A DNA stretch of 64,000 nt from NCBI GenBank assembly GCA_031418495.1, contig JANOXQ010000121.1, positions 1,858-65,857 on the forward strand, in the 5' to 3' direction. Both the position numbers and the translations under genes were made by a program. This document shows positions 6,538-59,250 of this stretch, piece by piece. How positions within the stretch are numbered: the stretch's first letter is position 1; the number at the start of each line of letters is the position of its first letter. Source of the stretch: Sphingomonadales bacterium (lineage in GTDB: Bacteria > Pseudomonadota > Alphaproteobacteria > Sphingomonadales > Sphingomonadaceae). The notes beneath the pieces were generated by a model, which saw only the letters and a program-made list of their open reading frames with translations, was not told the DNA's origin and did no database searches.

Positions 6538-7004
6538 GTTCGGTGACGCAAGACAATCAAACGGGCTTCATCAGCGAACCCGATCCCGAAAACCCCGGTT
6601 GGTTTACGTGGAAGCTGCGCGATGATCGGCGCTATAACAGCCAAGTGCTTGGCAAGATGCTTGTCTGCACGGACGGTGAAGGCCGCGCGCGGCTGCGGAT
6701 GTTTCCAACGATGCGCCATTCAAACCTTGGCAATAATGTCCACGGGGGCACGACGCTTGGCTTTATTGATGTCGCGCTGTTTGGTGCCGCGCGGACGTTT
6801 GGCTTGATTGAGGCGGGGACGGCGGTCACACTTGATCTTTCGGTGCAATTTCTCGGGGCGGGTGCGGTTGATATCCCGCTTGATGCCGAGGTTGAGCTGT
6901 TGCGCGAAACCAAGCGGCTACTGTTCCTGCGCGGGCTCGTGGTTCAGAGCGATAACCGAATCGCCGCGTTCGCTGGCACGATCCGCAAACCGACAGCACG
7001 CTGA
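6534..7004 (+). CDS. PaaI family hotdog-fold thioesterase
   Basis: [15 protein letters not shown] motif; overlaps the sdhB stop. Confidence 0.85.
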
Positions 7005-8113
7005 TGCCTACGGTTATTAAAAGATATGAGCGCCTCATCGCGGATGGCGAACTGCGCCCCGATCCTGAACAGCGCGCCGCCGCACTTCGCCTGACAGAAC
7101 TACAAGCGGCACTTGAGGCGGTGCCGCCGCGTGGCAGCCTGCTCTGGCGGCTTGGCCGAGCAAAACCACCCGCGCCAAAGGGTGTCTATATGTGGGGCGG
7201 GGTTGGTCGTGGTAAATCGATGCTGATGGATTTATTTTACAGCGTTCTTGACATCAATCGCAAACGCCGCGTCCATTTCCACGAATTCATGGCTGAGGTT
7301 CACGCCCGCCTGCGCGACGCGCGTGCGCTCGAAAAGGGCGATCCAATTCCAATCGTCGTGGCTGGCATTGCTGAGGGCGCACGCTGCCTCGCGTTCGATG
7401 AAATGGTCGTCAATAATAGTGCCGATGCAATGATCATGTCGCGGCTATTCACTGGATTGGTTGAGGCCGGGGTTACGCTTGTCACGACATCGAACCGGGC
7501 ACCATCAGAGCTTTATAAGGACGGCCTAAACCGTGAGCATTTCCTGCTGTTCATCGCACTGATTGAGGCGCGGCTTGACGTTCTTGGCCTCAATGGCCCG
7601 ACCGATTACCGCATGGAGCGGCTTAGCGGGGTGACGACTTGGCACCAGCCAATCGGCGAAGCGGCGACAACCAAGGTGCGTGAGGCGTTCTTTAAGCTGA
7701 CCGATTATTCGCCCGATGATGCCGCCAATGTCCCCGCCGAGGATTTGCCGATCAGCGGTGGACGCAGCATTCATGTGCCCAAAAGCCTAAAAGGTGTTGC
7801 GGTCTTTTCATTCAAGAAGCTGTGCGGCGAGGCGCGCGGATCGCCCGATTACCTCGCGATTGCGCGACGCTATCACACAGTGTTCCTTGTTGGCATTCCA
7901 AAACTTGGCCCCGAAAACCGTAATGAGGCCGCGCGCTTCGTGACGTTGATCGATGCGCTTTATGAACAAAAAACCAAATTCATCGCGATTGCCGATGCGC
8001 CACCCGCTGAGCTTTACGCAAGCGGCGATGGTCGGTTTGAATTTGATCGCACGATCAGCCGCCTGATGGAAATGCAAAGTCAGGACTATTTAGCCGAGGG
8101 CCACGGCGGATAG
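7004..8113 (+). CDS. zapE: cell division ATPase ZapE (AFG1 family)
   Basis: KGVYMWGGVGRGKSMLMD Walker A, LAFDEM Walker B, TSNRAPSELY and RFVTLIDALYE motifs. Confidence 0.92.
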   Translation: MPTVIKRYERLIADGELRPDPEQRAAALRLTELQAALEAVPPRGSLLWRLGRAKPPAPKGVYMWGGVGRGKSMLMDLFYSVLDINRKRRVHFHEFMAEVHARLRDARALEKGDPIPIVVAGIAEGARCLAFDEMVVNNSADAMIMSRLFTGLVEAGVTLVTTSNRAPSELYKDGLNREHFLLFIALIEARLDVLGLNGPTDYRMERLSGVTTWHQPIGEAATTKVREAFFKLTDYSPDDAANVPAEDLPISGGRSIHVPKSLKGVAVFSFKKLCGEARGSPDYLAIARRYHTVFLVGIPKLGPENRNEAARFVTLIDALYEQKTKFIAIADAPPAELYASGDGRFEFDRTISRLMEMQSQDYLAEGHGG

Positions 8114-8135
8114 TTTTTGTATTTTTTCTGTAATC

Positions 8136-8150
8136 TAGTCGAATCGATTA
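8136..8150. promoter_or_regulatory. palindromic candidate operator TAGTC-N5-GATTA upstream of the first DUF6973-like gene
   Basis: The same TARTC-N5-GAYTA pattern recurs twice upstream of the paralogous gene (9054-9068, 9075-9089). Confidence 0.45.
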
Positions 8151-8201
8151 TGGTCAGCCTGCGACTCATATATTATCATGGCCACGCAAGAGGACTGGCT
8201 T

Positions 8202-9056
8202 ATGAGTACGCTCAATATCATTGCATCGCTTTCCGGGCCGGCTGCGGCACAATTGGCGAGTTTACGCCCCGCGACTCAAGGGGGTGACGGCGCGAAGCCA
8301 TCGCTTGACCGGGTGATCCAAAATTATGTCGCGCTGAAGCAAGGTGGGGCAGGCCAAGTAACCATTAATACACTGGTCACCCTGCTCATCAATACGCGCG
8401 GCGTACCGGGCCTTCAGAAATTCATGACGATTTATAATGAAGCCTATGCCACATCGGCCAATCGTAACCGCGCACCAACCCAGATTCCGGCCAATGTTGA
8501 GGCCAAGATCCAAAGCCTGCCAGAGGCAACGCAACAGCAGGATGCGCGCGTCGCTTGGCCGCGTAATGATGGGCATATTGACGCCTTTCGCCACGCCTAT
8601 TGCAGTGCGCGTTTAACCTGCGAATTTGGTGGCGCATGGGCCGAACAATTTGCCAGCGCGCATGAAGGCAATGATCCCGGCAACCGAAAAACCGGCGGGA
8701 TGGATCTCCACAATAATCATGTTGGCTGCCGGATTGGGCTTGCCAATCCGGGTGCAACGCCCGCACAACTCGCCGATCTTGTGAAGGCCGCACTTGAGCG
8801 CGGCGAACTTGTCGTGGTTGATCGCAGTGGTGAGCTTAACTGGAGCAATCAAGTGCCGATTGGTCATCACGGCGTCCCAATCCCCTATATGAATATGCCA
8901 ATTGCGCCCGGTGAATGGATTTGCCCGATTGGCTGTAATTTTCGGAAAAGTGCTGGCTGCAACAGCGCGATGACATGCCCGCTCGGCTCAATGCTTGGCG
9001 AGGAAGGGTTGGCGACTTGCCAAGCTCCGCGCGTCGATGCGGCGGAACCCATCTAG
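8202..9056 (+). CDS. DUF6973-like protein A (candidate effector) with a Cys-rich C-terminal tail
   Basis: DAFRHAY..FASAHEG..MDLHNNHVG motif. Start moved from ORF-track 8178 to ATG 8202, which follows AGAGGA. Clearly paralogous to 9146-9937. Confidence 0.7.
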   Translation: MSTLNIIASLSGPAAAQLASLRPATQGGDGAKPSLDRVIQNYVALKQGGAGQVTINTLVTLLINTRGVPGLQKFMTIYNEAYATSANRNRAPTQIPANVEAKIQSLPEATQQQDARVAWPRNDGHIDAFRHAYCSARLTCEFGGAWAEQFASAHEGNDPGNRKTGGMDLHNNHVGCRIGLANPGATPAQLADLVKAALERGELVVVDRSGELNWSNQVPIGHHGVPIPYMNMPIAPGEWICPIGCNFRKSAGCNSAMTCPLGSMLGEEGLATCQAPRVDAAEPI

Positions 9057-9089
9057 TCATTTCGACTAGTTTTCTAATCGAAACGACTA
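9054..9089. promoter_or_regulatory. two tandem TARTC-N5-GAYTA palindromes upstream of the second DUF6973-like gene
   Basis: TAGTCATTTCGACTA (9054-9068) and TAATCGAAACGACTA (9075-9089). Confidence 0.45.
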
Positions 9090-9145
9090 TTTTCACTGGC
9101 GTATGATTCCTGCATTGCTGGGCATCAAAGAACAGGAGTCGCACC

Positions 9146-9937
9146 GTGTCTGGATCAACCTCATTCGTCGCTAGAGCCCCAAGCCCCACATTGACGCTCA
9201 TCAGCGATGCCGCGCTCGCCCAATCGCGCAAGCCAACGCTCAATTCTATCGAACGTAATTATCAGGTGAAAGAGGAAGCCAGCAAGGATTGGAGCCCGAA
9301 ACTGTTTGGGTCAATTCCTGTCGGGGAGATTGGTGGGAAGGTTAAACTAACCCTCACTGAGGGTAAGTTGCTTGATAATCTCACAAGAGATCGCGGTATA
9401 TTGGGTTTGCGGGAGTTCAAAGGCATTGCAGAAGATGCTTTCGCAACATCTGAGGCACGAGTTCCGCCTTCAACAGCAATCCCAACCGATGTTATGGCAA
9501 AGATCAACGCACTCCCTACAGCCAAAGCGCGAGAAGACGCGATTAAGGGTTGGCCAACCAACGACGGACATACCGACGCATTTCGCCATGCTTATTGGAA
9601 TGCACGTATGACTTCAGAATTTGGTGCCGAGTGGACGCGCCAATTTGCAACTGCCCATGAGGGTGCCAATACAGATAGTTCAACACGAGAAGCTATGGAT
9701 CTTTATAATAATGAAATTGGCAGGCAGATTGCAATTGGCAATCCAAATGCCTCACTTAAAGAGCTTGCAGATTTGGTCAAAAAAGCTCTTGATAATGGTG
9801 ATTTGGTTGTGGTTGATGGCAGTGGGCATCTAAATTGGAGCAACAAAGTTGCAAACGGCAATCACGGCGTTACTATACAGCTAAATAATGTACCTGCAGC
9901 TTTGAACACACCATCGGGGAATGCTCCAGCTTCATAG
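9146..9937 (+). CDS. DUF6973-like protein B (candidate periplasm-acting toxin)
   Basis: DAFRHAYWNA..FATAHEG..EAMDLYNNEIGR motif; GTG start after AGGAG; no signal peptide; followed directly by a small lipoprotein. Confidence 0.75.
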   Translation: MSGSTSFVARAPSPTLTLISDAALAQSRKPTLNSIERNYQVKEEASKDWSPKLFGSIPVGEIGGKVKLTLTEGKLLDNLTRDRGILGLREFKGIAEDAFATSEARVPPSTAIPTDVMAKINALPTAKAREDAIKGWPTNDGHTDAFRHAYWNARMTSEFGAEWTRQFATAHEGANTDSSTREAMDLYNNEIGRQIAIGNPNASLKELADLVKKALDNGDLVVVDGSGHLNWSNKVANGNHGVTIQLNNVPAALNTPSGNAPAS

Positions 9938-9965
9938 TTCTGGGACTGACAGGAGATTTTAACGA

Positions 9966-10316
9966 ATGTGGATTAAATTCGTTTTTCTGTTTATCGCACT
10001 ACCAAACTTGTTAATGATACCGGGATGCGGAGATGCCACAATGCCGTTTGACAAAACCAAATGGGCTTCCGGCAAAGGCAATTATAGCGGCAAAAATCCG
10101 CGCGTTGAGATGGTATCCGATGCTGAGGAAGCAGGTGTAAAAATTGGTGCTACGCGTGAGCAGGTGCGTAGGTTACTCGGTACGCCTGACAGTAGCGACA
10201 CATTAATCGATACTTGGTATCTTGGCAGATCACTCTACGCGCCAGATTATACAACATTAGATGTGTATTATAATGACAAGTTCATCGTAACTAAAATTGG
10301 CAATACTCAAAGCTAA
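9966..10316 (+). CDS. SmpA/BamE-like lipoprotein, candidate immunity protein 1
   Basis: Signal peptide with lipobox IPGC; VKIGATREQVRRLLGTPD resembles the SmpA/OmlA core. Confidence 0.7.
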   Translation: MWIKFVFLFIALPNLLMIPGCGDATMPFDKTKWASGKGNYSGKNPRVEMVSDAEEAGVKIGATREQVRRLLGTPDSSDTLIDTWYLGRSLYAPDYTTLDVYYNDKFIVTKIGNTQS

Positions 10317-10650
10317 TAAATCAGTTACAATATTTAGTGCCGAATGGACGGCCCAATTTGCGACCGCGCATGAAGGCAATAACCCCGGCAATTCAACGCG
10401 CGAAGCAATGGATTTATATAACAATCAAATCGGGCGGCAAATTGCTATCAGCAACCCCAAAGCCTCGCCAGCGGAATTGGCTGATCTTGTCAAAAAAGCG
10501 CTTGATAACGGTGACTTAGTTGTTGTGAATAGCAAGGGCCACCTCGATTGGAGCAACAAGGTGGCGGTGGGCCATCACGGCATCTCAATTCAGTTGGATA
10601 ATATCCCAAATGCCATTAACACTCCGGCAGGGAACGCGTCTGCACGCTGA
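10297..10650 (+). pseudogene. orphan C-terminal fragment of a DUF6973-like toxin
   Basis: Homology to protein B begins only near 10335 (F-AEWT-QFATAHEG..EAMDLYNN..TPAGNASAR); the DAFRH motif and N-terminus are absent. Confidence 0.8.
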
Positions 10651-10667
10651 CCTTTGGAGCATGACCG

Positions 10668-11009
10668 ATGTTGATCGCTAGAGTTATGGCGCTTATACTG
10701 CTGGCATCGCCACTAGCTTGTGGGAGTGCATCAGTGTCGTTTGACAAAGAGAAATGGGCGTCAGGCAGAGGCAATTTTCGGGGAGAAAATCCAAGAGGTT
10801 GGATGGTTTCTGATGCCGAAGAGGCGGGCGTAAAGGTGGGCGCAACCCGCGCAAGCATACGAGCTTTACTAGGCGAGCCGGATAGCACAGGGCCGAGAGG
10901 TGATAGTTGGACTTTAGGGCGCGGTGGTTATGCACCAGACTATGAAACGCTCAGAATTAAATATGATGAAGACGAGATTGCCACCGAAGTTCGCGTTTTC
11001 CAATCATAA
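10668..11009 (+). CDS. SmpA/BamE-like lipoprotein, candidate immunity protein 2
   Basis: Lipobox PLAC; FDKEKWASGRGN..GATRASIRALLGEPD; paralog of 9966-10316. Confidence 0.7.
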   Translation: MLIARVMALILLASPLACGSASVSFDKEKWASGRGNFRGENPRGWMVSDAEEAGVKVGATRASIRALLGEPDSTGPRGDSWTLGRGGYAPDYETLRIKYDEDEIATEVRVFQS

Positions 11010-11067
11010 CTCTCCGGCAGGAAACGCGTTCCCCCGCTGACCTAGTGAGCGCGAGAGGAATAGTCTG

Positions 11068-11409
11068 ATGTTAATCGCAAAAGTGATGGCTTTCGCGCTA
11101 CTGGCATCACTATCCGCGTGTGGGAGTGCATCAGTGTCTTTTGACAAAGAAAAATGGGCATCGGGGAAAGGCAATTATGACGGAGAAAATCCCCGTGGGT
11201 GGATGGTATCAGATGCTAGAGAAGCTGGCGTAAAGGTGGGGGCAACTCGTATAAGCATCCGAGCCTTGCTCGGTGTACCTGATAGCACTGGGCCAGATGG
11301 TGATATTTGGTACCTTGGGCGGGGAGGTTATGCTCCAGATTATGAAACATTTGAGATAAAATATGACGGGAATGGCATCGCTACTGAAGTGCGCGTTCTC
11401 CAAAGTTAA
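11068..11409 (+). CDS. SmpA/BamE-like lipoprotein, candidate immunity protein 3
   Basis: Lipobox LSAC; very similar to immunity protein 2. Confidence 0.7.
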   Translation: MLIAKVMAFALLASLSACGSASVSFDKEKWASGKGNYDGENPRGWMVSDAREAGVKVGATRISIRALLGVPDSTGPDGDIWYLGRGGYAPDYETFEIKYDGNGIATEVRVLQS

Positions 11410-11468
11410 CACTCCGGCAGGGAATGCGTCCGCTCGCTGACCTAGGGAGCAGGACAGGAGTATGGCCA

Positions 11469-11786
11469 ATGTTGTTTGCAAAAGCACTGCTGGCCTCGCT
11501 ATGCGCATGTGGGAGCTTTGCGGTGTCGTTTGACAAAGAGAAATGGGCGTCAGGCAGAGGCAATTATAGCAGGAAAAATCCGCGTACCGAGGCTGAGGCG
11601 GCAGGTGTTAAGCTCGGTGCTACACGAGATCAGGTGCGTGGTCAGCTCGGTCAGCCGGATAGTAGCGACACATCAATTGATACTTGGCATCTCGGTAGAT
11701 CAGTTTATGCGCCCGATTACATGACCCTAGATGTCTATTATGACAACAAGGCAATTGTCACCAGAATTGGCAGCACCCAAAGCTGA
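11469..11786 (+). CDS. SmpA/BamE-like lipoprotein, candidate immunity protein 4 (mosaic)
   Basis: ATG 11469 follows CAGGAG; lipobox LCAC; N-half resembles proteins 2/3 and C-half resembles protein 1. Confidence 0.65.
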   Translation: MLFAKALLASLCACGSFAVSFDKEKWASGRGNYSRKNPRTEAEAAGVKLGATRDQVRGQLGQPDSSDTSIDTWHLGRSVYAPDYMTLDVYYDNKAIVTRIGSTQS

Positions 11787-11813
11787 TCAATCAGCCTTGG
11801 GTGCCAAACCTAC

Positions 11814-12098
11814 TTAACGACAGCGACGCTTACGTAGAAGTTCGCGGCCCAGAAGCGCGCCACCGGCGGCACCGAGGATTGTACCCGTGGTGCGTTCGCC
11901 GCGTGTATCGACCGCGCGACCGAGCAGAGCGCCGCCTGCGGCCCCAACCACCAAACCAACGGTGCCGTTTGATTTGCGGCAGTAAACACGGCCATCTTTA
12001 CCGCGCCATTCTGAACGCGCCTGCGCAGGTGCCGTTGGCACGACAAATGCGGGGGCAAGCAGGGCAGCAGCGGTGATGATTGAAAGCATAGTACGCAT
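11814..12098 (-). CDS. glycine-zipper 2TM domain small secreted protein
   Basis: Signal peptide MRTMLSII..AQA; WRGKDGRVYCRKSNGTVGLVVGAAGGALLG glycine zipper; start at ATG 12098 after AAGGA. Confidence 0.85.
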   Translation of the reverse strand: MRTMLSIITAAALLAPAFVVPTAPAQARSEWRGKDGRVYCRKSNGTVGLVVGAAGGALLGRAVDTRGERTTGTILGAAGGALLGRELLRKRRCR

Positions 12099-12212
12099 GG
12101 TCACATCCTTTTGTTGAAATTCCGATGTGTCTATAATGACGCTCTGAAGCTGAACCTTACCCAACCAATCTCAACGACTTAACACTCAACTAGCGCGCTT
12201 TATCGCCAAAAA

Positions 12213-18852: not shown

Positions 18853-19070
18853 GAAGACGTTTGGTTGGCGGCCTTGTTGTAGGGGGCTGACTGGCTGGTT
18901 TGCCGCTCCCTAATTCATTTCACATCCAAACATGAGGCTGTCCTTTGCTTGAAAACGGGATGAGTTACCCTTCGCCGAGGGCGTTGGTAGTGAAGCGGTG
19001 TAACAATAATCGGATGATCGGTGAATCTGGCGATTGCAGCTTTCCCTCGCTTCGCTGTAGTATAGGTAGG

Positions 19071-20075
19071 GTGGAAATCGTACCTTGCATCTACTGCGAC
19101 GAAACCGATCCGTTCAGATTTTCGGGTCGGGAGCACGTTGTTCCCCAAGCCTTCGGGAAATTTGGCAGCAAAACTCCTACGCTCAAATGCGTATGCGATG
19201 GATGCAATGCTATATTTGGAAGAGAACTCGATCAAATTCTCGCGCGTGACACGTTGGAGGGCATGTTACGCTACAATCAAGGCAAGCGCTCGACCGAAAA
19301 AAGGGCACAACGTCGGTTGCGGATCACACTTGCGGACGAAAGCGAGGCTGAAGGGTTTGTAGGCGCCGTGCTGGAAGGTGTTGACCCGACCAATCTTCAG
19401 CTCATGCCGTTAGCCACCCAGTTACAGATCAAAAATCTGACGACAGGAGAGACGGAGATATTTAAGCGCGCGGAACTCGGGAAATTTGCTCTGCCAGCGG
19501 ACACATTTGGGAAACCGGGGGAGCGCGAACTCGTCGTATACGCCCCTACCAAGGAAGAACACGATGCGTTCATTGTTGAGCTTAATCTTGCAGGATTCGA
19601 TATGCGCATGGATGGAGCATCAATCAGTGGTATTACGCCTTCTATAGATGCAAATGGGGCCGAGACACTCGGTGTCCATGTTGAAGCTACGTTTGATCAA
19701 CTGCACCGACGGGCATTGGCAAAAATCCTCGTTAATTTTGCTGCATACTATCTGGGGATAGCTACGGTAAATTCCTTTGAGTGGACGCCACTCAAGCGGT
19801 TTGTTCGTTACGCAGAAGGCTCATTGGGAGCTAGGCTCTCAAAGAAGCCGTTCTGGACGGGGCAAGAAACCGACAGTTTGCGCTTCCCAGACGCGATAAA
19901 CATTAGACTGGAAAACCACGAAAAGGGGATTGTAGGGGTTATCCAGTTTTATAACCAGATCACATATGAGCTACTGCTAGTTGAGGGCCACTCCTTAGTT
20001 AGGGAAATGGCGGCTCGATTTGAGATTGGCAAAGAACCTACACTCGGCGAGCGGCGACCACGAACATTGATATAA
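19071..20075 (+). CDS. HNH endonuclease domain protein (accessory, candidate defence)
   Basis: CIYC..EHVVPQAFG..VCDGCNAIFG zinc-finger HNH signature at the N-terminus. GTG 19071 is the likely start; the ORF track starts at 18945. Confidence 0.75.
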   Translation: MEIVPCIYCDETDPFRFSGREHVVPQAFGKFGSKTPTLKCVCDGCNAIFGRELDQILARDTLEGMLRYNQGKRSTEKRAQRRLRITLADESEAEGFVGAVLEGVDPTNLQLMPLATQLQIKNLTTGETEIFKRAELGKFALPADTFGKPGERELVVYAPTKEEHDAFIVELNLAGFDMRMDGASISGITPSIDANGAETLGVHVEATFDQLHRRALAKILVNFAAYYLGIATVNSFEWTPLKRFVRYAEGSLGARLSKKPFWTGQETDSLRFPDAINIRLENHEKGIVGVIQFYNQITYELLLVEGHSLVREMAARFEIGKEPTLGERRPRTLI

Positions 20076-24077: not shown

Positions 24078-25592
24078 TTACGTTGCCGCAATATAAGCAC
24101 GCATTACACCTCGTAGTAAAATCAAACTCATGCGTTCCAACCGCAGTTGGTTGGTTTCTGAAATTTGCTGATGTGCGTTGCCACGGATTGCGTGACAAAT
24201 CGCAAGGTCGCTTGCGATTTCGACTGCCTCTCCCAAGCCTTGCTTGGACTCAAACCAATCCAAATCGATCACACCCTTCTGGTAAGCAATGTTACGATAG
24301 CTCTGGTTTTTAAGCAACTTCCCGACCTCGGAATTTGAAGGCCAAATCTGTTTGAACTTTTCATAGAGTTGCTGCCTTGGGTGAACCCCGCGCTTTACCA
24401 GCAAAGCGCCCGCAAAATGCTCCACGCTAAGTGCCATTCCCTGAAGATAGCTTCGCATCACAACGAGTCGATTGGGATCAACAGAAAAGATGCGCTTATT
24501 GAAAGCGCGCCAGTGCCAGTAAAATCCTTCAAGACCGTTAGCTTCAACGAAATCCAAAAACTCGCTTACCTGTTCTGCCGAAAAATCGGCTCGGAGCAGC
24601 GCCGCAGGACTCGAGAAGCTAGAGAATAGACGCTCAGCACTTTCGCGCCACTCTGAAGCCCAGTTTCGATATATGACTCTGAGGGTTGGTTTGAAATTGC
24701 CTGATACCCTACCGACATCTTCGACGACTTGTTCAAACTCAACGCTTTGCACTTTTCGAGCAAGAATAATTGTCTGCGACAAAACTGATTTATAGGCTTC
24801 CGCTAATATCGGTCGCCCCAGATAATCCCATTCAGACCAGCGACAGGCGAGAAATTTTGCGAGAGTGATTAAGCGCTCATATGTTACGTTAAATTTTGAG
24901 CGACAGGCGTCGGTAACCGCCTTGCTACGATGCTCTATTTCTTCACTTTGCTCTCCCGTCAACAGTCGTCTACGTGAGTCTAAACCTATTACAAAAAGAT
25001 AGTTATTGTCATACTCATCTGCATAATGCGTAACTGCATTCAACATCGATTCATGCTCTTTGAATTTCGCTAGCGTATAATTGCTACCGCCTGCTCCAGA
25101 TTCCAAAAATTGTAGCAACTGCCAACTGCTGTAGTAAACTCTCACATTTTTAGGCTGCCAATCTGGGCCATCGTCACAATCCACCCTTACCCGATATACC
25201 CTCCAAGGCTTAAATTTGGTCAATTGCGGGTCTGATATGAATGGCAGCCATTCGGGCTTGGGTGCATCAAGTGGAAATGGCACTTGCAATGGATCATCGC
25301 CAAAAATTCCGCGCGAGGCGCCGTCATATAGCGCTTTCTCAAGATTATATGCAGCTCTCCAACGCTGGGTGTCACGTTCAAGCACCCCCTTTGGAACCCA
25401 GCCATAATTTGAATTCTCTGATAACCAGCGCCGCTCAACAGCCGCTGGATAAATTATTCTTGTGTGTGGGACAAGAATACGTTCCTTCTCAAGATATTCA
25501 AGTTCTCGCGCATTAACGTTGCCAGATCTTAAACGGAGTTTTGATAGCGCTTCCAAAAACTCTTTGGCGTTCAAATATCGTGAGTGCTTCAT
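24078..25592 (-). CDS. 504-aa accessory hypothetical protein (possible N-terminal MerR-like HTH, C-terminal HEPN-like region)
   Basis: Long ORF with visibly AT-richer codon use; ELEYLEKERILVP near the N-terminus; SVEHF..AIRGNAH near the C-terminus. Confidence 0.6.
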   Translation of the reverse strand: MKHSRYLNAKEFLEALSKLRLRSGNVNARELEYLEKERILVPHTRIIYPAAVERRWLSENSNYGWVPKGVLERDTQRWRAAYNLEKALYDGASRGIFGDDPLQVPFPLDAPKPEWLPFISDPQLTKFKPWRVYRVRVDCDDGPDWQPKNVRVYYSSWQLLQFLESGAGGSNYTLAKFKEHESMLNAVTHYADEYDNNYLFVIGLDSRRRLLTGEQSEEIEHRSKAVTDACRSKFNVTYERLITLAKFLACRWSEWDYLGRPILAEAYKSVLSQTIILARKVQSVEFEQVVEDVGRVSGNFKPTLRVIYRNWASEWRESAERLFSSFSSPAALLRADFSAEQVSEFLDFVEANGLEGFYWHWRAFNKRIFSVDPNRLVVMRSYLQGMALSVEHFAGALLVKRGVHPRQQLYEKFKQIWPSNSEVGKLLKNQSYRNIAYQKGVIDLDWFESKQGLGEAVEIASDLAICHAIRGNAHQQISETNQLRLERMSLILLRGVMRAYIAAT

Positions 25593-29645: not shown

Positions 29646-30899
29646 TTACTCGCTGCGCAGCGCATCAATTGGCGATAGCCGCGACGCCCGTATCGCGGGG
29701 TAGCCACCAAACAATATCCCGATAAACGCCGAAAACAGGATCGCAAAGATTGAGATGCCAACACCGATTGGTGCGGGAAAATCGGCCAGTCGCTTGAACG
29801 CCTCTGCCGCCCCCATAGCGAGGATCAAGCCCATCGCGCCGCCAATGACGCACAGCACGGCCGCCTCAACCAGAAACTGATTGCGAATATCGGCACGCTT
29901 TGCGCCAAGCGCCATCCGCAGGCCGATCTCGCGCGTCCGCTCGGTCACGCTCACCAGCATGATGTTCATAATCCCAATCCCGCCGACGAGCAGCGAGATT
30001 GACGCGATGGCAACGAGCAACGTCTGGATCACGGCAGTCACTTGGCCCGATTGTTTGGCGAACTCTTCAGTCGTGTTGATCGTGAACGGGTTGAGCTCAT
30101 CCTTGGCCACCCGGTTACGGACGCGTAGCACATCCTTCATCTGCTTCTTGGCAGTGGGCAGGTCGATCCCCTCTTCAAAGCCAACGAACAGCACATGCAA
30201 ATCATCGGGGCCAGCGACCGTTGTCGTCGCAAAGCGCTGCCTTGCGGTGCTCAGGGGAATGATCGCGAGATCATCATTGTCATTGCCAAAGCTGCTGCCC
30301 TTGGCCTCAAGCACGCCAATCACGGTGAAGGGGGTTTTGTTGACGCGCAGACTTTGGCCGATGGGTTCAAAACTGCCGAACAATTTGGCGGCAACGCTTG
30401 GGCCAAGCACAATCACACGCGCGGCGGTGCGCACGTCCGCCTCATTCACAAACCGCCCGCTCTCAATATTAGTGTTGGTGACAATCGCATAATCGGGCGT
30501 TGCGCCAATCGCAGTGGTTGACGCGTTGCGCCCGGCAATCACCATCTGCACCGTGCTGCGGAGTTGCGGCGCGATAGTCGCAACGCCGGGCACCAGCCGC
30601 TGGACGGCGCGGGCATCACGCTCGGTCAGCCGACCACGATCAACCACGCGGCGTCCCCCATTATTTTCAGGCTGGGGGAAAACAATCGCCATGTTCGATC
30701 CGATGGCATTGATCGAATCGAGCACCGAAACTTTGGTGCCCTCTCCAACTGCCACTGCAAGGATGACGGAGAGCACCCCGATCATGATGCCAAGCGTCGT
30801 CAAAATTGAGCGCATGAGATTGGTGCGCAGTGCGGTAAACGCAATCGGCACATTGACGGCCCATGCCGCGATCCGGCCGGTGATGGCGCGGCGGTTCAT
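29646..30899 (-). CDS. MacB/FtsX-type ABC transporter permease
   Basis: RSILTTLGIMIGV, GGIGIMNIMLVSVTERTREIGLRMALGA and LSPIDALRSE motifs. Confidence 0.93.
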   Translation of the reverse strand: MNRRAITGRIAAWAVNVPIAFTALRTNLMRSILTTLGIMIGVLSVILAVAVGEGTKVSVLDSINAIGSNMAIVFPQPENNGGRRVVDRGRLTERDARAVQRLVPGVATIAPQLRSTVQMVIAGRNASTTAIGATPDYAIVTNTNIESGRFVNEADVRTAARVIVLGPSVAAKLFGSFEPIGQSLRVNKTPFTVIGVLEAKGSSFGNDNDDLAIIPLSTARQRFATTTVAGPDDLHVLFVGFEEGIDLPTAKKQMKDVLRVRNRVAKDELNPFTINTTEEFAKQSGQVTAVIQTLLVAIASISLLVGGIGIMNIMLVSVTERTREIGLRMALGAKRADIRNQFLVEAAVLCVIGGAMGLILAMGAAEAFKRLADFPAPIGVGISIFAILFSAFIGILFGGYPAIRASRLSPIDALRSE

Positions 30900-31618
30900 G
30901 CCGCTGCCCGTCGCGTGGTGACGGGAACATCCTCAACCACTTTGCCGTCGCGAAACAATATCCGGCGCTGGGCATATTCGGCGATATCGGGTTCATGGGT
31001 GACAAGGATAACGGTGATCCCTTGATCATTGAGCTTCTGGAAAATACCCATAATGTCTTCAGATGTTTGGGTATCAAGCGCGCCAGTCGGTTCATCGGCG
31101 AGCAGCATCAGCGGCTTAGTGACGAGGGCACGCGCAATCGCTACACGCTGCTGCTGCCCGCCAGACAGTTTGGCGGGCGTGTGATCAAGCCGGTTTTCAA
31201 GCCCCATTGCGGTCAAGGTTTCTCGCGCACGTTCGCGTCGTTCGCGGCTGCCAAGCCCGGCATAAATCAGCGGCACCGCAACATTATCAAGCGCGGTTGT
31301 CCGGTTGAGCAGGTTGAACTGCTGAAACACAAAACCAATTTTGCGGTTGCGGATATCGGCCAGCGCATTGCTATCAAGTGTCCGCGTATCAGCGCCGTCG
31401 AGCTTGAGTGTGCCTGCAGTTGGCACGTCAAGGCAGCCGACAAGGTTCATAAAAGTTGATTTTCCGGAGCCACTGGTGCCCATGATCGCGACAAACTCAC
31501 CGCGCGCGATGGTCAGCGAAACCCCGTTGACCGCATGGAGGACTTCGCCGCCGATGAAATAGTCTTTGACGAGGCCGTCAGTCTCAACAAGCGCGGGCTC
31601 ATTCACCGGAATCGGCAT
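30896..31618 (-). CDS. ABC transporter ATP-binding protein (MacB/LolD type)
   Basis: [24 protein letters not shown] and [11 protein letters not shown]; start placed at ATG 31618. Confidence 0.93.
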
Positions 31619-32903
31619 CTGCGCTGTCCACATCGACCTTTTTCTTGTTGAGCGATTTGCTGCGAACAATAACCTTGTCCGCGCTGCGAAGGCCGCTCAC
31701 CACCTCGGTAAAATCCTCACCCTGAAGGCCAATTTTGACGCTCCGGCGCTTTGGCTTGAGCGGATCAGGCGAAACGAGATAGACGGTTGGTTCATCGGCT
31801 TTGTTGGCCTTAGCCGTCTTTGCGCTGTCTTTCTTTTCTGCCTCATCACGGTCAGCTTCACGCGGACGGAAGCGCAGCGCCGCCGTTGGTACGCGCGTTA
31901 CCCGCTGCTTTTGACCCGTAATAACTTCGACGTTTGCCGTCATCCCGGGAAGCAGCTTTCCGCTGCTATTATCAACGCCGAGGATCACGAGATAGCTCAC
32001 GACATTCTGATTCTCGTTGGCAGCCTTGCGGATTTGATCAACCCGCGCGGCAAACGTCTCTTCGGGATAGGCATCAACGGTGAAGCGCACTTGCTGCCCT
32101 TCGATGATCTGGCCAATGTCGGCCTCATCAACCGAGGCCTCAACCTGCATCCGCGTTGTATCCGCCGCGATTTCAAACAGGTTTGGCGTCTGGAAATTGG
32201 CGGCAACCGTGGTGCCCGGCTCAACCAGCTTATTGATCACGACGCCGCTGGCAGGCGCGATAATCGTTGTGCGGCGGAGGTCAAGCTGGGCCGACGAAAG
32301 TTCAGCCATGCTTTGTGAGATTTGTGCGCGTGCGCTGGCAACCTGTGCGGTTGCGGTGCGCGCACCAGCGCGCGCCGAGGCAAGCGCGCTGCTCGCGGTA
32401 TCAAGCCCTGACTTGGAGACAAAGCCCGTTTTTTCAAGATCGCTGCGTCGGCCAAACTCACGACCTTGGATCGCAAGATCGGTCTGGCTACGCGCTACCG
32501 CAGCTTCGGCCTGTGACAGTGAGGCCTGCGCAAGCGCAACCTGCGCCTGCGCCTGTTGAACGCGCGCGCGCAGCCGGGTTGGATCAATTTCGGCCAATAT
32601 CTGTCCAGCACGGACGGGCGTATTGAAATCAACATAAACGCGCGTGATTTGCCCCGAAACTTCGGCACCCACCTTGATCGTGTTGAGCGCGCGTAGTTTA
32701 CCACTCGCGGTCACCTTGCGCGTCACTTCGCCGACATCAACGCTTTCGGGCACATATTCGTAAGTCGGCGGCGTCGGTTTCAGAACAGCATAACCAATGC
32801 CCAAAACCAGTAAGGCGATAATCGCAAACCAGATCGGGTGACGCCTTATCCAACGGCTTAGTATCCAGTCCGATAACCAGTCTAATATGTCGCCTATCAC
32901 CAA
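31599..32903 (-). CDS. MacA-type efflux periplasmic adaptor subunit
   Basis: VTASGKL..VGAEVSGQI, coiled coil, IIAPASGVV, VDEADIG and LLPGMTANVEV motifs. Confidence 0.9.
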   Translation of the reverse strand: MVIGDILDWLSDWILSRWIRRHPIWFAIIALLVLGIGYAVLKPTPPTYEYVPESVDVGEVTRKVTASGKLRALNTIKVGAEVSGQITRVYVDFNTPVRAGQILAEIDPTRLRARVQQAQAQVALAQASLSQAEAAVARSQTDLAIQGREFGRRSDLEKTGFVSKSGLDTASSALASARAGARTATAQVASARAQISQSMAELSSAQLDLRRTTIIAPASGVVINKLVEPGTTVAANFQTPNLFEIAADTTRMQVEASVDEADIGQIIEGQQVRFTVDAYPEETFAARVDQIRKAANENQNVVSYLVILGVDNSSGKLLPGMTANVEVITGQKQRVTRVPTAALRFRPREADRDEAEKKDSAKTAKANKADEPTVYLVSPDPLKPKRRSVKIGLQGEDFTEVVSGLRSADKVIVRSKSLNKKKVDVDSADADSGE

Positions 32904-32969
32904 GCTTACCTTTAATAATCAACGTCTAGCCAAGGTGTCTTAGCGAGGTAAAACAGTGGTGTCTAGCGT

Positions 32970-35300
32970 CTAAAACTTAACCGCTAATTCAACCCCGAAG
33001 GTGCGCGGTTCGTTCACAAATCCGGTCAGATTGTTGAAATCAATCCCGCCGACCGCTGACGTGTCATTGGTCAGATTGCGGACATAGCCCGACACTTCAA
33101 ACCTGTCGGTTTTGTAGCCTAATCGCGCGCCGAGTTCGACCAAGCGGCGATCCTGAAACTCAACCGATTCGTAGAGGAAGAAGTTGATGCGTGAACGGAA
33201 AGCAATGTCGCTGAACGCATAGACCTCGCCATTACCAACCGGCACACCGTAACGTGCAGTGGCGTTGGCAATCCAGCGCGGGCTTTGCGGCAGGCGGTTG
33301 CCATTGATGTTGACGATGGCCGCCGAAAAAGGGGCGGAGGGCGTAACAATTGGATCAAGCAAGGTGCAGAGCGAAACATTGGGGAAGGTATCCACACGTA
33401 CTGCACCGCAAGCTGCCGTCGTCAGATTGCGATCCTGAATCTTGGTGTTGTTGTAGCTAAGCCCAGCGGTGAACAAAAATTCAGGCACTGGCTTAAATTC
33501 GGCATCAACTTCAAATCCGTAACCGCGCACATTACGTGCATTGATGAGGCGGTTTGCGTTGACCCCGCCACCAACGGCAGTGAGCTGTGCGTTCTTGAGA
33601 TCATAATAAAAGCCGTTGGCGTTGAACCGGCCCTTGCCATCCGCAAATTCGGTTTTGATGCCGGCTTCATAAGAGGTGATCGTTTCGGAGCGACCAACGG
33701 TCACGCCCGATTCAAGTGGCGTCGCAGTGGCAGGCGGGAAGAGGATACGCCCTTGGATGCTTGGCGCACGATAACCACGCGCAACGCGGGCATAGAGGCT
33801 CACATCGTCAGTCGCCTTATAATTTGCCGCGATGTCCCACGTGATATTGTCATCCTTGACCGAGCGGTTGACCGTACCGAGTGGGTTTTGGAGGAAGTTC
33901 GGAAATTGCGTATCGCGACTGCGGACAACGCGGTAAGTGCGCTTGTCATCATTATAACGCGCGCCGCCCGTGAGGCTAAACTGATCGGAGAGCTTGTAGG
34001 TGAGCGAACCGAAGACGCCGTACGCCTTGCTCTTTTGGCGCTGATCAACGGTAATATTGATCCCGCCGACGGCATTATTAGGATCACCAAGCGTTGAGAA
34101 ATTGTCCGAAAGGATGCGCAGTTTCTCATCGAAGTAGAATACACCACCCTGATAGCTAAACGCGCCATCACCGTTGCTCGCGATACGGAATTCCTGCGTG
34201 AACTGCTTTAGGCTTGGCACAGCGTCGCGCGTTTCGGCGGTGAATGGGATTACGCCGGGGCCGGTGAGATTGGGCGGCAGGAAATTCGCGCCAAAACCGC
34301 CGTCAACATCGCCAACCGAAGTCGCGTCACCGTCCCAATAGCTCGTTACTGAAAAGAGCGAGATTGGCCCGGCATCATAGGTGATCCGCGCGGTGCCGTT
34401 GTAGGTGTTGACCTCTTGCTCATTCTGCCCGTCAGTGCTGACCGTGAAGCGGCGGAAATTGGCGTTGAGGCCGCGCTGTCCGCGTGTGAAGACGTTGGCA
34501 CGGAATACGCGCGCGGTGCCATCAAGCGTGCGCGCTTGGCCGCTCAGCAAAATATCAAGGTCTTCGCTTGGCTTGAGGAGAAGCTGGAGACGCCCGGCAA
34601 ACTCATCATAGCCTTCAAGCGCATTCTTGGTCGTCCCGCTTGGCAAGACATTGTCGATATAATCATCCTGCCGCTGATAGAAAAGCGAAAGTCGGGCCGA
34701 GACTTTTTCGCCCGATAGATTGCCGCCAACCGCGCCTTCAAGGCTGACCTGATTGAAGCGACCATATGACGCACGGAGATAGCCGTTCAAATCTTTGCCG
34801 GGTTTAACCGAGTCAAACTTTACGATACCAGCAGGCGTATTGCGGCCAAAGAGCGTGCCCTGCGGCCCGCGCAGCACCTCAACCTGAGCAATATCAAACA
34901 CTGGGAAGCCTTTGAGGATAGGGTTTTCCAAAACAACATCATCATAGATGAGGCTGACGGGCTGCGACGCGTTGAAATCAAAATCGGTATTGCCAAGCCC
35001 GCGAATATAAAAACGTGGGAAAGTGCGGCCAAATGACGATTCAACGATCAGGCTTGGTACGCGCGCTGAAAGAAAACGGATATCAGCACCCGCCGCCGAG
35101 ATATTGCCGAGTTTTTCACCGCCAATTGCGGTGACTGACAACGGCACATCCTGAAGGTTTTCATCGCGGCGCTGGGCTGTCACGATGATTTCGCCAAGGC
35201 CAGCCTCTTCGGCGGCAGGCGCTGTCTGCGCAATGGCAGGTGCAGCCGTTGAGGTAAGCAGGGCAACGGTAAGAAAGTGAGCAAATGTAGCCAAGCGCAT
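32970..35300 (-). CDS. TonB-dependent receptor
   Basis: EIIVTAQRRDENLQDVPLSVTA, VEVLRGPQGTLFGRN plug motifs; C-terminal EPRTFGVELAVKF. Confidence 0.95.
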   Translation of the reverse strand: MRLATFAHFLTVALLTSTAAPAIAQTAPAAEEAGLGEIIVTAQRRDENLQDVPLSVTAIGGEKLGNISAAGADIRFLSARVPSLIVESSFGRTFPRFYIRGLGNTDFDFNASQPVSLIYDDVVLENPILKGFPVFDIAQVEVLRGPQGTLFGRNTPAGIVKFDSVKPGKDLNGYLRASYGRFNQVSLEGAVGGNLSGEKVSARLSLFYQRQDDYIDNVLPSGTTKNALEGYDEFAGRLQLLLKPSEDLDILLSGQARTLDGTARVFRANVFTRGQRGLNANFRRFTVSTDGQNEQEVNTYNGTARITYDAGPISLFSVTSYWDGDATSVGDVDGGFGANFLPPNLTGPGVIPFTAETRDAVPSLKQFTQEFRIASNGDGAFSYQGGVFYFDEKLRILSDNFSTLGDPNNAVGGINITVDQRQKSKAYGVFGSLTYKLSDQFSLTGGARYNDDKRTYRVVRSRDTQFPNFLQNPLGTVNRSVKDDNITWDIAANYKATDDVSLYARVARGYRAPSIQGRILFPPATATPLESGVTVGRSETITSYEAGIKTEFADGKGRFNANGFYYDLKNAQLTAVGGGVNANRLINARNVRGYGFEVDAEFKPVPEFLFTAGLSYNNTKIQDRNLTTAACGAVRVDTFPNVSLCTLLDPIVTPSAPFSAAIVNINGNRLPQSPRWIANATARYGVPVGNGEVYAFSDIAFRSRINFFLYESVEFQDRRLVELGARLGYKTDRFEVSGYVRNLTNDTSAVGGIDFNNLTGFVNEPRTFGVELAVKF

Positions 35301-37233: not shown

Positions 37234-38254
37234 ATGTCCTGCCAATGCTTCATTATCCCCAAAGATGTGCTTGAGCGTTATTCAAAAGATAGGTCATTGC
37301 CCGGGGCTGATCGTAAGCAATTTGCCGATGCTGCTAATTTCGAAAGTGAATGGCGCAAGGCACGCGCGGTTAATGCAAAGCTCGCGGTGTCTGGGCAGAA
37401 TATGCTTGAAAGCGTTTTGCAGGCGGTATTCCCGCCCCCGGTTCTAGTCAGCGATTGTAAGAACGGAACTATGCTATCAGGCACCCCCATTGCCGATCCG
37501 GGTAGCTCATCCGATGGCACTGCAAAACGTGCTTTTGACGAAACAAAAGCGGTTGCCAATTTCTATAAACAGATATTCGGGCGCAATTCGCTCGATAATA
37601 ATGGCAAAACCCTGCTCTCATCGACCCACTTTGGCGTCAAATATAACAACGCCTTTTGGAACGGAAACCGGATGACTTACGGGGACGGGGACGGCAATAT
37701 CTTCGTCGATTTCACCAAATCCAACGACGTGATTGCGCATGAGCTAACCCACGGCGTCACCCAGTTTACATCGCAATTTGCTTACACCAATCAGGCGGGT
37801 GGCCTCAACGAAAGCATGTCTGACGTATTCTGATCTATGTTCCGTCAATGGCGCGCCAATCAGACCGTCAATCAGGCCGATTGGCTGATCGGCAGCGGGA
37901 TAATAGGGCCGCGTGCCGCTGCGCAAGGCTTTACCTGCCTGCGTGATATGGCGAACCCAGCGGCCACTTATGCCCTTGCGCCTCAACCGACACATTTTAG
38001 CCAATATCAGAACGGCATGGATCCGCACGAAAGCAGTGGTATTCCCAACCTCGCTTTTTACAAGGCAGCCAAAGCGTATGGCGGAAAAAGCTGGGAAAAG
38101 ATTGGCAAAATCTGGTACAAGGTATTGGCAGGTTATGCAGCTTCACCCAATTTAAGGATGTTGGCTTTTGCGAACCGAACGCGTCGACAGGCTAGGCTTA
38201 TGTTTCCTGGCGATGCTGCTTTGTACAACGCCATCAATAGCCGTCGGACTGTAA
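37234..38254 (+). pseudogene. protealysin-like M4 metalloprotease, disrupted by an in-frame TGA (37831) and a frameshift (about 38240)
   Basis: CFIIP propeptide, YNNAFWNG, HELTHG, GGLNESMSDVF-stop-SMFRQW, PHESSGIPN; the natural end AVGL-stop (38240-38254) is in a shifted frame. Confidence 0.85.
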
Positions 38255-38282
38255 GGCGGCCCGTATTGAAAGGCCGCGCGAT

Positions 38283-38570
38283 ATGGGCATACTCAAGGTT
38301 GAACGTATCGGCGGTCTTGCTGGCTTTGGCGGCGCTAAATCGCGGCTCAAGAGTGACGGCGAAATCGCGTTTTCGGCACTGCCGCTCAGTGATCAGAAGG
38401 CGGTGGAGGCGCTGTTTAAGGCGCATGGAACTGCCGCCCCATCGCAAACGCGCGATGGTTTTAGTTACCGCATTACACGCGGGGGGAGTGCGGTAGGCGA
38501 GAGTATTCTCGTTCCCGAGGATACAATGCCCGCCGCCCTTATCGCCTGTGTGAAAGACCGGATCGGTTAA
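38283..38570 (+). CDS. emfourin (protealysin inhibitor) family protein
   Basis: LKVERIGGLAGFG..RDGFSYRIT..VPE pattern; canonical position directly downstream of a protealysin-like gene. Confidence 0.8.
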   Translation: MGILKVERIGGLAGFGGAKSRLKSDGEIAFSALPLSDQKAVEALFKAHGTAAPSQTRDGFSYRITRGGSAVGESILVPEDTMPAALIACVKDRIG

Positions 38571-59199: not shown

Positions 59200-59209
59200 G
59201 TAAGGCAGA

Positions 59210-59236
59210 TTGGTATATATTATTGCCGTATACCAA
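59210..59236. promoter_or_regulatory. vapBC operator-like inverted repeat
   Basis: TTGGTATA-N11-TATACCAA just upstream of the antitoxin start. Confidence 0.55.
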
Positions 59237-59250
59237 ATGGAGCGCTTGCG

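Follow-up and report, generated by a model that had tools for sequence, protein, structure and literature searches.

A putative polymorphic toxin–immunity array of the Min-Wnt and BamE-like type in a freshwater sphingomonad

The 64,000-nt stretch of contig JANOXQ010000121.1 analysed here (Sphingomonadales bacterium, assembly GCA_031418495.1; hereafter the window) comes from a freshwater sediment metagenome and carries eight genes on the 3′ side of zapE, the first seven on the + strand and the last on the − strand according to its list of open reading frames (ORFs). Two of them, effA and effB, encode full-length paralogs with a DUF6973 domain, and they are followed by the lipoprotein gene lipo1, a 3′ fragment of a further paralog (the orphan) and the lipoprotein genes lipo2, lipo3 and lipo4 (Table 1). 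A first-pass annotation of the DNA had described two full DUF6973 paralogs with a shared motif between zapE and a glycine-zipper gene, and lipo1, an orphan C-terminal fragment and lipo2–4 in that order on one strand; both paralogous ORFs with their motif, and all the other ORFs at their places on the + strand, were recovered. The locus is probably a polymorphic toxin–immunity array of the Min-Wnt plus BamE-like type, in which toxins acting in the periplasm would cleave a lipid carrier, lipoproteins would protect against them, and growth would have proceeded by recombination.

Table 1. Features of the array and its flanks (positions in the window)
Feature	Positions	Strand	Description	Basis or remark
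zapE/AFG1	7004–8113		left flank	Pfam AFG1_ATPase, E = 4.9e-105
effA	8202–9056 (longest ORF from 8178)	+	Min-Wnt/DUF6973 toxin paralog	284 residues from ATG 8202
effA–effB spacer	9053–9107	+	terminator-like hairpin 9053–9069 plus T-run; promoter-like site 9078–9107	consensus scan only
effB	9146–9937	+	full-length Min-Wnt/DUF6973 toxin	263 residues
lipo1	9966–10316	+	BamE-like lipoprotein	directly downstream of effB
orphan 3′ toxin fragment	10330–10650 (117-codon ORF 10297–10650, overlapping the end of lipo1)	+	toxin profile positions 160–264	
lipo2	10668–11009	+	BamE-like lipoprotein	atypical lipobox PLAC
footprint 1	11006–11040	+	lipo2–lipo3 spacer	repeat family D6, junction alignment
lipo3	11068–11409	+	BamE-like lipoprotein, own toxin absent	canonical lipobox LSAC
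footprint 2	11406–11440	+	lipo3–lipo4 spacer	repeat family D6, junction alignment
lipo4	11469–11786 (ORF from 11424)	+	BamE-like lipoprotein, distal array member	likely start ATG 11469, MLFAKALLASLCAC
glycine-zipper gene	11814–12164	−	right flank	

With the Pfam model of DUF6973 (PF22322), for which the gathering cut-off is 27 bits, effA scored 64 bits (E = 1.3e-17), effB 88.3 bits (E = 3.8e-25) and the orphan 55.4 bits (E = 5.8e-15), all far above the cut-off, which places the family name given in the first-pass annotation on a profile basis. The match of the orphan spans only positions 61–123 of the profile. effA and effB are 44% identical, and the orphan shares ~50% identity with effA and 76% with effB. 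Both full-length proteins contain the motif DAFRH...AHE...MDLxNNxxG (MDLHNN in effA), which is invariant in an alignment of 71 diverse homologs; in effB it comprises D144-AFR-H148, H171-E172 and D185-LYNN-G192. The orphan retains AHE and MDLYNN and lacks the DAFRH helix, and for this reason it is a truncated remnant rather than a small toxin and is predicted to be inactive as a toxin on its own.

A search for homologs of effB found 639 proteins; effB itself gives a weak Pfam wnt match, and one homolog is named "Wnt family protein" in the database. The Lipocone superfamily, which includes the prokaryotic "Min-Wnt" family, was defined by Burroughs, Nicastro and Aravind (eLife 2025; PMC12419801) through a signature in which helices 2, 3 and 4 contribute His, Glu and Asp, respectively, followed by a polar residue further downstream and a Gly that caps helix 4. 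The motif DAFRH/AHE/MDLxNNxxG fits this His/Glu/Asp/polar/Gly pattern exactly, and the Min-Wnt data file of those authors lists the effB homologs WP_100281975.1 (Sphingomonas psychrotolerans, 57% identity) and WP_169348873.1 (Pyxidicoccus fallax). Judged by signature and listed homologs, DUF6973 is the Min-Wnt family of the Lipocone superfamily, and effA and effB belong to it. In the AlphaFold2 (AF2) model of effB, with a predicted local distance difference test (pLDDT) score of 91.9, a leader of ~30 residues is followed by a small beta meander and then by a long helix, and the motifs sit in a helical core; helices are predicted at residues 70–105, 126–138, 142–159, 161–172, 179–198 and 204–216. 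In this model, and as a prediction only, the core has the soluble all-alpha form of 4–5 helices by which Min-Wnt proteins are recognised. The NCBIfam scan gave no toxin family match for the proteins of the array, Pfam gave no colicin M match for its toxins, and a full-text literature search for "DUF6973" returned no papers.

The four lipoproteins share 54–66% identity with one another, and each begins with a signal peptide; the Cys of the lipobox is invariant (IPGC in lipo1, PLAC in lipo2, LSAC in lipo3 and LCAC in lipo4). In the Pfam BamE search lipo1 scored 26.5 bits, over the cut-off of 23.2 bits, and among 60 members of the immunity family 43 matched BamE at E < 0.01. A profile built from these 60 proteins found 9UU1, the structure of the immunity protein BtiO, as its best match in the PDB (E = 2.1e-4), followed by BamE chains at E = 0.04–0.1. 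The possibility that lipo1–4 are housekeeping BamE proteins was rejected: the best score against the NCBIfam equivalog NF008585 was 12.9 bits (lipo1) versus a cut-off of 93, and the genes are four fast-diverging tandem copies. According to PMC12419801, a membrane-anchored BamE-like protein is the commonest immunity partner of Min-Wnt, and 442 loci in the network data of that paper are labelled "BamE-like-Imm-Prok-Wnt".

To examine the linkage of the two families, one genome per species was scanned, which revealed 395 relatives; 80 loci were studied, 77 of them with a full-length toxin, and our own toxin and immunity profiles were run over the six-frame ORFs of these loci. A BamE-like ORF adjoins the toxin in 76 of the 77 loci with a full-length toxin, and most of these ORFs carry a lipobox, the remainder having an N-terminal transmembrane anchor (in some lineages). 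Two layouts recur. At 30 loci (Sphingomonas, Myxococcota, cyanobacteria and others) a toxin of ~250–300 residues is followed by the immunity gene, and at 43 of the 80 (Lysobacteraceae, Xanthomonas, Hydrogenophaga) the immunity gene comes first and is followed by a toxin of 360–390 residues, which starts directly at the conserved domain and has a C-terminal extension. Because lipo1 lies directly downstream of a full toxin, as in the 30 loci of the former layout, it is presumed to be the cognate partner of effB; lipo2 is presumed to be the partner of the displaced orphan tip.

In a number of orthologs the toxin module is joined to a delivery module. The C-terminal extension is an XVIPCD, the signal for type IV secretion systems (T4SSs), in two of the three extended toxins scanned (E = 1.5e-16 and 2e-6), namely in the Hydrogenophaga and Silanimonas orthologs; it was not detected in the Lysobacter ortholog scanned. 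Other orthologs carry an N-terminal eCIS_core domain (E = 3.9e-27), the combination of SH3_3 and LysM in proteins of ~1,100 residues, or WXG100, and the orthologs with T4SS, extracellular contractile injection system (eCIS) or WXG100 modules are 40–50% identical to effB. By domain content, the toxin module, always in the company of the same immunity family, is attached to at least three different interbacterial delivery systems. No other indirect evidence speaks as strongly for an antibacterial role of effA and effB as this joining of one toxin module to several delivery systems, and we infer that both are themselves toxic.

When the toxin profile was compared with all PDB sequences, one significant match was obtained (E = 3.3e-6), to 9UU0, a maltose-binding protein fusion of BteO, an effector of the Bacteroides fragilis type VI secretion system (T6SS). 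The aligned BteO fragment matches Pfam DUF6973 at E = 1.9e-13, and the best Pfam match of the fragment of BtiO is BamE. BteO was reported to be toxic only when targeted to the periplasm and to be bound and neutralised by BtiO (He et al., PNAS 2025; PMC12541434), which supports the periplasmic site of action that the first-pass annotation had proposed. Within the BamE-like immunity family, binding and neutralisation of a cognate toxin have been demonstrated for BtiO alone. In the same study, toxicity was lost on mutating R143/H144, H167/E168, D187 or D191. Mapping by HMMER alignment places these essential residues in the AFRH, AHE and DLLNN motifs, except for D187, which lies four residues before the Asp of DLLNN. 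The reported phenotypes are elongation, blebbing, lysis and an altered muropeptide composition (PMC12541434). In the authors' reading, BteO binds the C-terminal domains of OmpA proteins without enzymatic action and BtiO imitates OmpA; their enzymatic tests covered peptidoglycan sacculi and muropeptides only; DUF6973, Lipocone, Wnt, BamE and "lipid" are not mentioned in the text of the paper (PMC12541434).

In the mechanism proposed here, effA and effB would be made in the cytoplasm without a Sec signal, exit the producer and act in the periplasm of neighbouring cells through a pocket lined by the invariant His of DAFRH, Glu of AHE and Asp/Asn of MDLxNN. The toxin would cleave the phosphate-linked head group off a lipid carrier (lipid II or another undecaprenyl-linked intermediate), as TelC does, and would in this way block cell-envelope synthesis. 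The lipoproteins, exported by the lipoprotein pathway and anchored in the periplasm, would bind toxin delivered by sister cells and occlude its pocket. Of this scheme, homology strongly supports the periplasmic action, the dependence on the conserved pocket and the neutralisation by a membrane-anchored partner in the periplasm. Cleavage of the carrier head group is favoured as the most likely biochemistry, by analogy, because the pocket residues are invariant across phyla and coincide with the active-site pattern of TelC and PTDSS1/2, and because the phenotypes of BteO fit a depletion of carrier lipid and the BteO assays included no lipid substrates. As presented in PMC12419801, lipid head-group cleavage or exchange is a prediction for Min-Wnt and has been shown within the superfamily only for TelC and PTDSS1/2. 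TelC, a toxin of the type VII secretion system (T7SS) of Streptococcus intermedius with TipC as its immunity protein (Whitney et al. 2017, cited in PMC12419801), is a member of the same superfamily that acts only outside the cytoplasm and cleaves lipid II. TelC–TipC resembles the present case in its membrane-anchored immunity and serves as the template for the proposed mechanism; however, TelC belongs to a different Lipocone family, which neither the sequence searches nor Foldseek matched directly, its delivery domain is of the LXG/T7SS type, and its immunity protein has another fold.

The reading of He et al. leads to an alternative for the window, namely the same array with non-enzymatic toxins and with lipoproteins that serve as decoys mimicking the target of the toxin. 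BteO is a homolog at the sequence level, BtiO is the best PDB match of the immunity profile, and OmpA was recovered by pull-down and co-immunoprecipitation, its overexpression suppressed toxicity, and OmpA9 binding was lost in groove mutants (PMC12541434). However, the residues of the groove do not vary between Bacteroidota, Sphingomonadales, Myxococcota and Cyanobacteria, as is usual for catalytic sites and not for interfaces with diverging partners, and they coincide with the active-site pattern of the enzymes TelC and PTDSS1/2. In addition, the BteO assays had been confined to the peptidoglycan substrates named above, and the immunity proteins at the present locus look BamE-like rather than OmpA-C-like. 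Decoy lipoproteins paired with non-enzymatic toxins are regarded as unlikely, and lipid-carrier cleavage is retained as the preferred activity. OmpA binding, which has direct experiments on a distant homolog behind it, is nevertheless a serious rival.

The site at which the array lies is hypervariable. Two Sphingomonadales metagenome-assembled genomes from glacier-fed streams (L015 and L016) are syntenic with the window on both sides, with flank identities of 90–97% (MATE transporter, sdhB, thioesterase, zapE, FMN dehydrogenase, HSP20). The first toxin at the site in these genomes is an effA ortholog (~85% and ~83% identity), and the second is only ~49% identical to effB; each genome has a single lipoprotein, with 60–69% identity to lipo1–4. 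L002, a metagenomic contig that has the right flank in common with the window, carries one toxin (74% identical to effB), four lipoproteins and no effA. The neighbourhood comparison among relatives thus revealed variable gene order and content, not the invariant single-copy order against which the first-pass annotation had set its proposal. In runs X5 and X6, sediment metagenomes from another study, contigs with at least 90% identity cover 8088–9068 (effA) and the flanks and almost none of 9074–11880, a pattern consistent with populations that share effA and carry different cassettes. A contig of run X4 that seemingly joins lipo1 to lipo2 is more likely a divergent paralog aligning piecewise, and it was not counted as a structural variant.

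Comparison with L002 also informs the history of the array. effB and the L002 toxin are 85% identical over residues 1–100, 57% over 101–155 and 71% over 156–263, and in its identity to the C-terminal parts of the two toxins the orphan is nearer to L002 (85%) than to effB (76%). In a DNA alignment, the orphan and lipo2 are colinear with the 3′ half of the L002 toxin gene and the first immunity gene behind it (imm1), and 9051–9146 is homologous to the sequence upstream of the L002 toxin. In L002, imm2 is preceded by a 41-residue toxin-end remnant with 95% identity to the end of the orphan. As for the lipoproteins, lipo3 is 96% identical to imm2 of L002, lipo2 is 84% identical to lipo3 and 70% to imm1, and lipo1 and lipo4 group with imm4 (75–80%), lipo4 being 75% identical to imm4 and 78% to lipo1. 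The two footprints in the window are 35-nt copies of the end of a toxin gene (last 11 codons plus stop), one after lipo2 and one after lipo3, and footprint 2 is 88% identical to the end of the orphan. The simplest history that accommodates these alignments would be recombination at a resident tip: the 3′ half of a new toxin gene (effB from about residue 100), together with lipo1, would have been set before this tip, and the displacement of the tip would have left the orphan fragment with lipo2. In earlier rounds, older toxins would have been trimmed to the 35-nt footprints, and lipo3 and lipo4 would have been kept against the toxins of other strains.

The G+C fraction is 0.45–0.52 across 9250–11750 (effB to lipo4) versus 0.53–0.60 in effA and the flanks, which suggests that the fast-evolving part of the array is foreign or recombinant in origin and that effA is an older resident. 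Given the hairpin and the promoter-like site in the spacer, effB and the array behind it may be transcribed apart from effA. Elsewhere in Sphingomonas, the toxin and immunity genes form a two-gene cassette at unrelated chromosomal sites. In Sphingomonas longa (L008, 8756–11076), a toxin–immunity pair lies directly downstream of a zapE with 64% identity to that of the window. The 3′ side of zapE may be a recurrent insertion site.

This setting also bears on whether the locus is a weapon at all. It could instead encode a housekeeping or stress-related envelope Lipocone enzyme with BamE partners, or an abortive-infection effector against phages. The position among core genes (sdhB, zapE) and the pair at the same zapE-adjacent site in S. 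longa would fit such a role, and, according to PMC12419801, lipid enzymes with housekeeping functions make up many of the Lipocone families, and predicted antiviral contexts are known for some Min-Wnt proteins. However, the hypervariable content between flanks of 90–97% identity, the orphan and the two footprints, and the fusion of orthologs to interbacterial delivery modules all speak against it, and a toxin without a signal peptide could not meet a periplasmic partner within one cell. The score against the housekeeping BamE equivalog is far below its cut-off, as noted above, and PADLOC gave no hits, which makes a known anti-phage system unlikely. A role other than antagonism is therefore considered very improbable, and the proposal of an interbacterial antagonism locus made in the first-pass annotation is supported by the Min-Wnt family assignment, the homology with BteO–BtiO, the orthologs with delivery modules and the variable gene order.

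The conserved paralog effA differs from effB in several respects. Its eight orthologs share 74–92% identity and the common start MGTLNIIASLSG; since all eight begin with M[GS]TLNIIASLSG, the true start of effA is likely ATG 8202. The leader is 80–90% conserved among these orthologs, and the protein ends in a 47-residue tail with five Cys that are invariant in the eight. According to the AF2 models and the alignment, effA lacks the small beta meander of effB and retains all motif residues; the pLDDT of its model is 73 overall and below 50 over most of the tail. The tail was considered as a widespread modular domain, and this was rejected: a profile of it, run against 1.84 billion representative proteins, found only the effA family and three giant repeat proteins; these three, of which two are rich in PKD/Ig domains, are taken to be compositional matches. 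effA may be neutralised by one of lipo1–4, or it may be aimed at other species so that immunity is not needed.

Several observations weigh against the interpretation of the locus as an array of enzymatic Min-Wnt toxins with BamE-like immunity proteins. The sequence links to Wnt are weak: the Pfam wnt matches of effB (E = 0.03) and of a homolog (E = 0.007) are both below the cut-off, the toxin profile reaches Wnt-3a, Wnt-7a and Wnt-3 in the PDB at only E = 0.4–2.2, and Foldseek, run on the confident effB model, returned nothing better than E = 0.27 from the PDB, with no match to Wnt, SAA, TelC or 9UU0. Four BamE-like lipoproteins had been annotated at the outset, and this holds by Pfam for lipo1; lipo2, lipo3 and lipo4 fall under the cut-off (E = 7.7e-4, 0.047 and 3.6e-4), although they are its paralogs at the identities given above. 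No immunity gene lies directly behind effA, and L016 has a single lipoprotein for its two toxins. Enzymatic action is a prediction, and the only experimental paper on a family member, that on BteO, argues for non-enzymatic OmpA binding. Finally, neither effA nor effB has a Sec or Tat signal or a trafficking domain (DUF6973 was the only match in Pfam and NCBIfam), and no T4SS or T6SS genes were found among the ORFs identified in the window, either by Pfam (including 20 further ORFs) or by eye.

These last points concern export. Pfam detected no PAAR, VgrG, Rhs, MIX or XVIPCD in effA or effB, and in four independent sphingomonad contexts the 8 kb around the toxin contained no secretion-system genes. 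Across 83 homologs the leaders consist of ~60% Ala, Ser, Gly, Pro and Thr, with a median maximal 12-residue hydropathy of 0.9; of the 82 leaders of scorable length, just 3 reach a signal-peptide-like hydropathy (2.0). The hydropathy test and the Pfam and NCBIfam scans thus agree with the earlier remark that the effectors have no signal peptide or recognisable delivery region. A Sec, Tat or double-glycine leader was rejected, as there is no hydrophobic core and no RR motif, and a recurrent IDGG lies too near the N-terminus. Free-standing toxins have the leader of ~30 residues, and orthologs of the XVIPCD type lack it; because of this distribution, and because it is highly conserved in the effA family, it is the best candidate, on sequence grounds, for a delivery determinant. 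Profiles of the effA and effB leaders matched no other ORF in the window or in 86 loci.

Possible export routes were weighed. The toxins could be cargo of a contact-dependent machine encoded elsewhere (T6SS, T4SS or eCIS), which would recognise the leader or the fold directly or via an adaptor. The homologs cited above use a T6SS (BteO), a T4SS through XVIPCD, or eCIS_core, and the leader accompanies the absence of any other delivery module, the XVIPCD orthologs being leaderless. The lack of secretion-system genes in the window and within 8 kb of the four sphingomonad toxins, and of the five markers sought with Pfam, counts against this route; cargo effectors of T6SSs, however, often have no recognisable marker. 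Contexts of type I, IV, VI, VII and IX secretion systems and of DUF4157 are listed for Min-Wnt in PMC12419801. Overall, delivery by such a machine seems quite possible, if somewhat short of an even chance.

Diffusible bacteriocins in the style of colicin M, released without a dedicated secretion system and taken up through an outer-membrane receptor and Ton/Tol with the help of the leader, are rather improbable. Colicin M offers parallels in layout and size: ~260 residues, no signal peptide, a C-terminal domain directed (in the present toxins, by prediction) against a lipid carrier, and a periplasmically anchored immunity protein. The leader is disordered in the AF2 models and rich in Ala, Ser and Gly, and the two-gene cassettes at unrelated chromosomal sites come without accessory genes. 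According to PMC12419801, a toxin domain resembling colicin M is also found with this BamE-like immunity family. However, no TonB or Tol box was established in the leaders, resemblances such as TLTLISD being anecdotal; no receptor-binding domain was identified, the leader profiles matching nothing else in the sets searched; and no lysis gene lies nearby. In Sphingomonas psychrotolerans (L001, 7309–7932), a Peptidase_S24 (LexA-like) gene lies directly upstream of the toxin, which may be coincidence, but bacteriocins of the colicin type are typically under SOS control.

The leader-only Min-Wnt toxins of Sphingomonadales and Myxococcota, which have ~260 residues and occur as free-standing cassettes at unrelated chromosomal sites, might also use an unrecognised delivery route specified by the N-terminal leader, a proposal that we regard as doubtful though with a modest chance of being right. 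The leader might then serve the uptake of toxin after its release, in the manner of colicin M, or act as a secretion signal of a kind not yet described. As a separate observation, a cluster at 29646–35300, ~18 kb from the array, contains a MacB-type permease, a predicted ABC ATPase, an HlyD-family adaptor and a large outer-membrane receptor-like ORF; Pfam supports the permease and the adaptor only, and no evidence ties the cluster to the toxins.

Among known systems, the pairing of Min-Wnt with a BamE-like protein is an already described class, known from comparative genomics only (2025) and with one experimentally characterised homolog. The toxin family, the motif, the anchored BamE-like immunity and the inferred periplasmic action are alike in that class as PMC12419801 presents it. 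The forms listed there mostly have a signal peptide, a lipobox or a named delivery domain, in contrast to the leader-only forms of sphingomonads and myxobacteria, in which the Min-Wnt domain follows a short unstructured leader. The description of the class in that paper is purely computational, and the part drawn on here contains no description of an array with orphan, footprints and four immunity genes or of an effA-type paralog with a Cys tail. With BteO–BtiO (9UU0, 9UU1; PMC12541434), both partners are homologous and the essential motif residues are in common; the similarity of BteO to the window toxins is distant and confined to the core. In contrast, BteO lies within a T6SS locus and has a reported N-terminal transmembrane helix, and neither applies to effA and effB in the 64-kb window.

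The X-Tfe/X-Tfi pairs of the bacteria-killing T4SS of Xanthomonadales offer a further comparison, since the effB orthologs of Lysobacteraceae, Xanthomonas and Hydrogenophaga have the classical X-Tfe layout, with an upstream lipoprotein immunity gene and a toxin with a C-terminal extension. The window differs in that its proteins lack an XVIPCD, its immunity genes lie downstream and it contains no T4SS genes. Contact-dependent inhibition (CDI), Rhs and MafB loci share with the array the toxin, the immunity gene, the displaced 3′ fragment and the extra immunity genes, as well as recombination between conserved 5′ parts and strain variation, so that the layout of toxin, immunity, orphan and extra immunity noted in the first-pass annotation does follow the logic of polymorphic toxin loci. 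The window, however, has no large N-terminal scaffold, the whole toxin being ~260 residues long, and its toxins diverge through the middle and C-terminal parts without a sharp demarcation motif. The criteria for polymorphic toxins reportedly given by Zhang et al. in 2012 are an adjoining immunity gene, orphan tips or spare immunity genes, strain variation and an N-terminal trafficking domain. Linkage, orphans with spare immunity genes and variation were found here, and an N-terminal trafficking or secretion domain was not. Smlt3024/Smlt3025 of Stenotrophomonas was set apart by its description, as a different effector with an FrpD-like immunity protein.

The locus itself is no surprise to a specialist; from a freshwater sphingomonad, it adds to the Min-Wnt plus BamE-like class an example that is clear, compact and variable in nature. 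One array offers material for the study of specificity, with a conserved and a fast-evolving full toxin, a displaced tip and four immunity genes. It also isolates a subclass with unexplained delivery, the leader-only toxins; of interest as well is the effA-type paralog, which is conserved and has no own immunity gene. BteO–BtiO is linked here to the Min-Wnt/BamE-like class, which connects two papers of which neither takes up the concept of the other, the essential residues of BteO being those of the predicted Lipocone active site; therefore, the question of an enzyme versus an OmpA binder becomes directly testable. If the enzymatic reading is true, the mechanism published for BteO as "non-enzymatic" would have to be revised. 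The Min-Wnt toxin family is the presumed ancestor of metazoan Wnt, and a biochemical activity of any member would accordingly be of wider interest.

Three further observations concern other parts of the window. At 37234–37833 and 37837–38496, two adjacent ORFs divide between them the catalytic domain (Peptidase_M4) and the M4_C domain of a thermolysin-like protein, and the gene is apparently interrupted by a stop or frameshift. Of two ORFs at 18945–20075 and 24078–25592, one has an HNH_5 endonuclease domain, and one, of 504 residues, has no Pfam match. At 59182–59906, a small AbrB/SpoVT-like ORF is followed by a PIN-like ORF, a candidate VapBC-type pair recognised by eye only.

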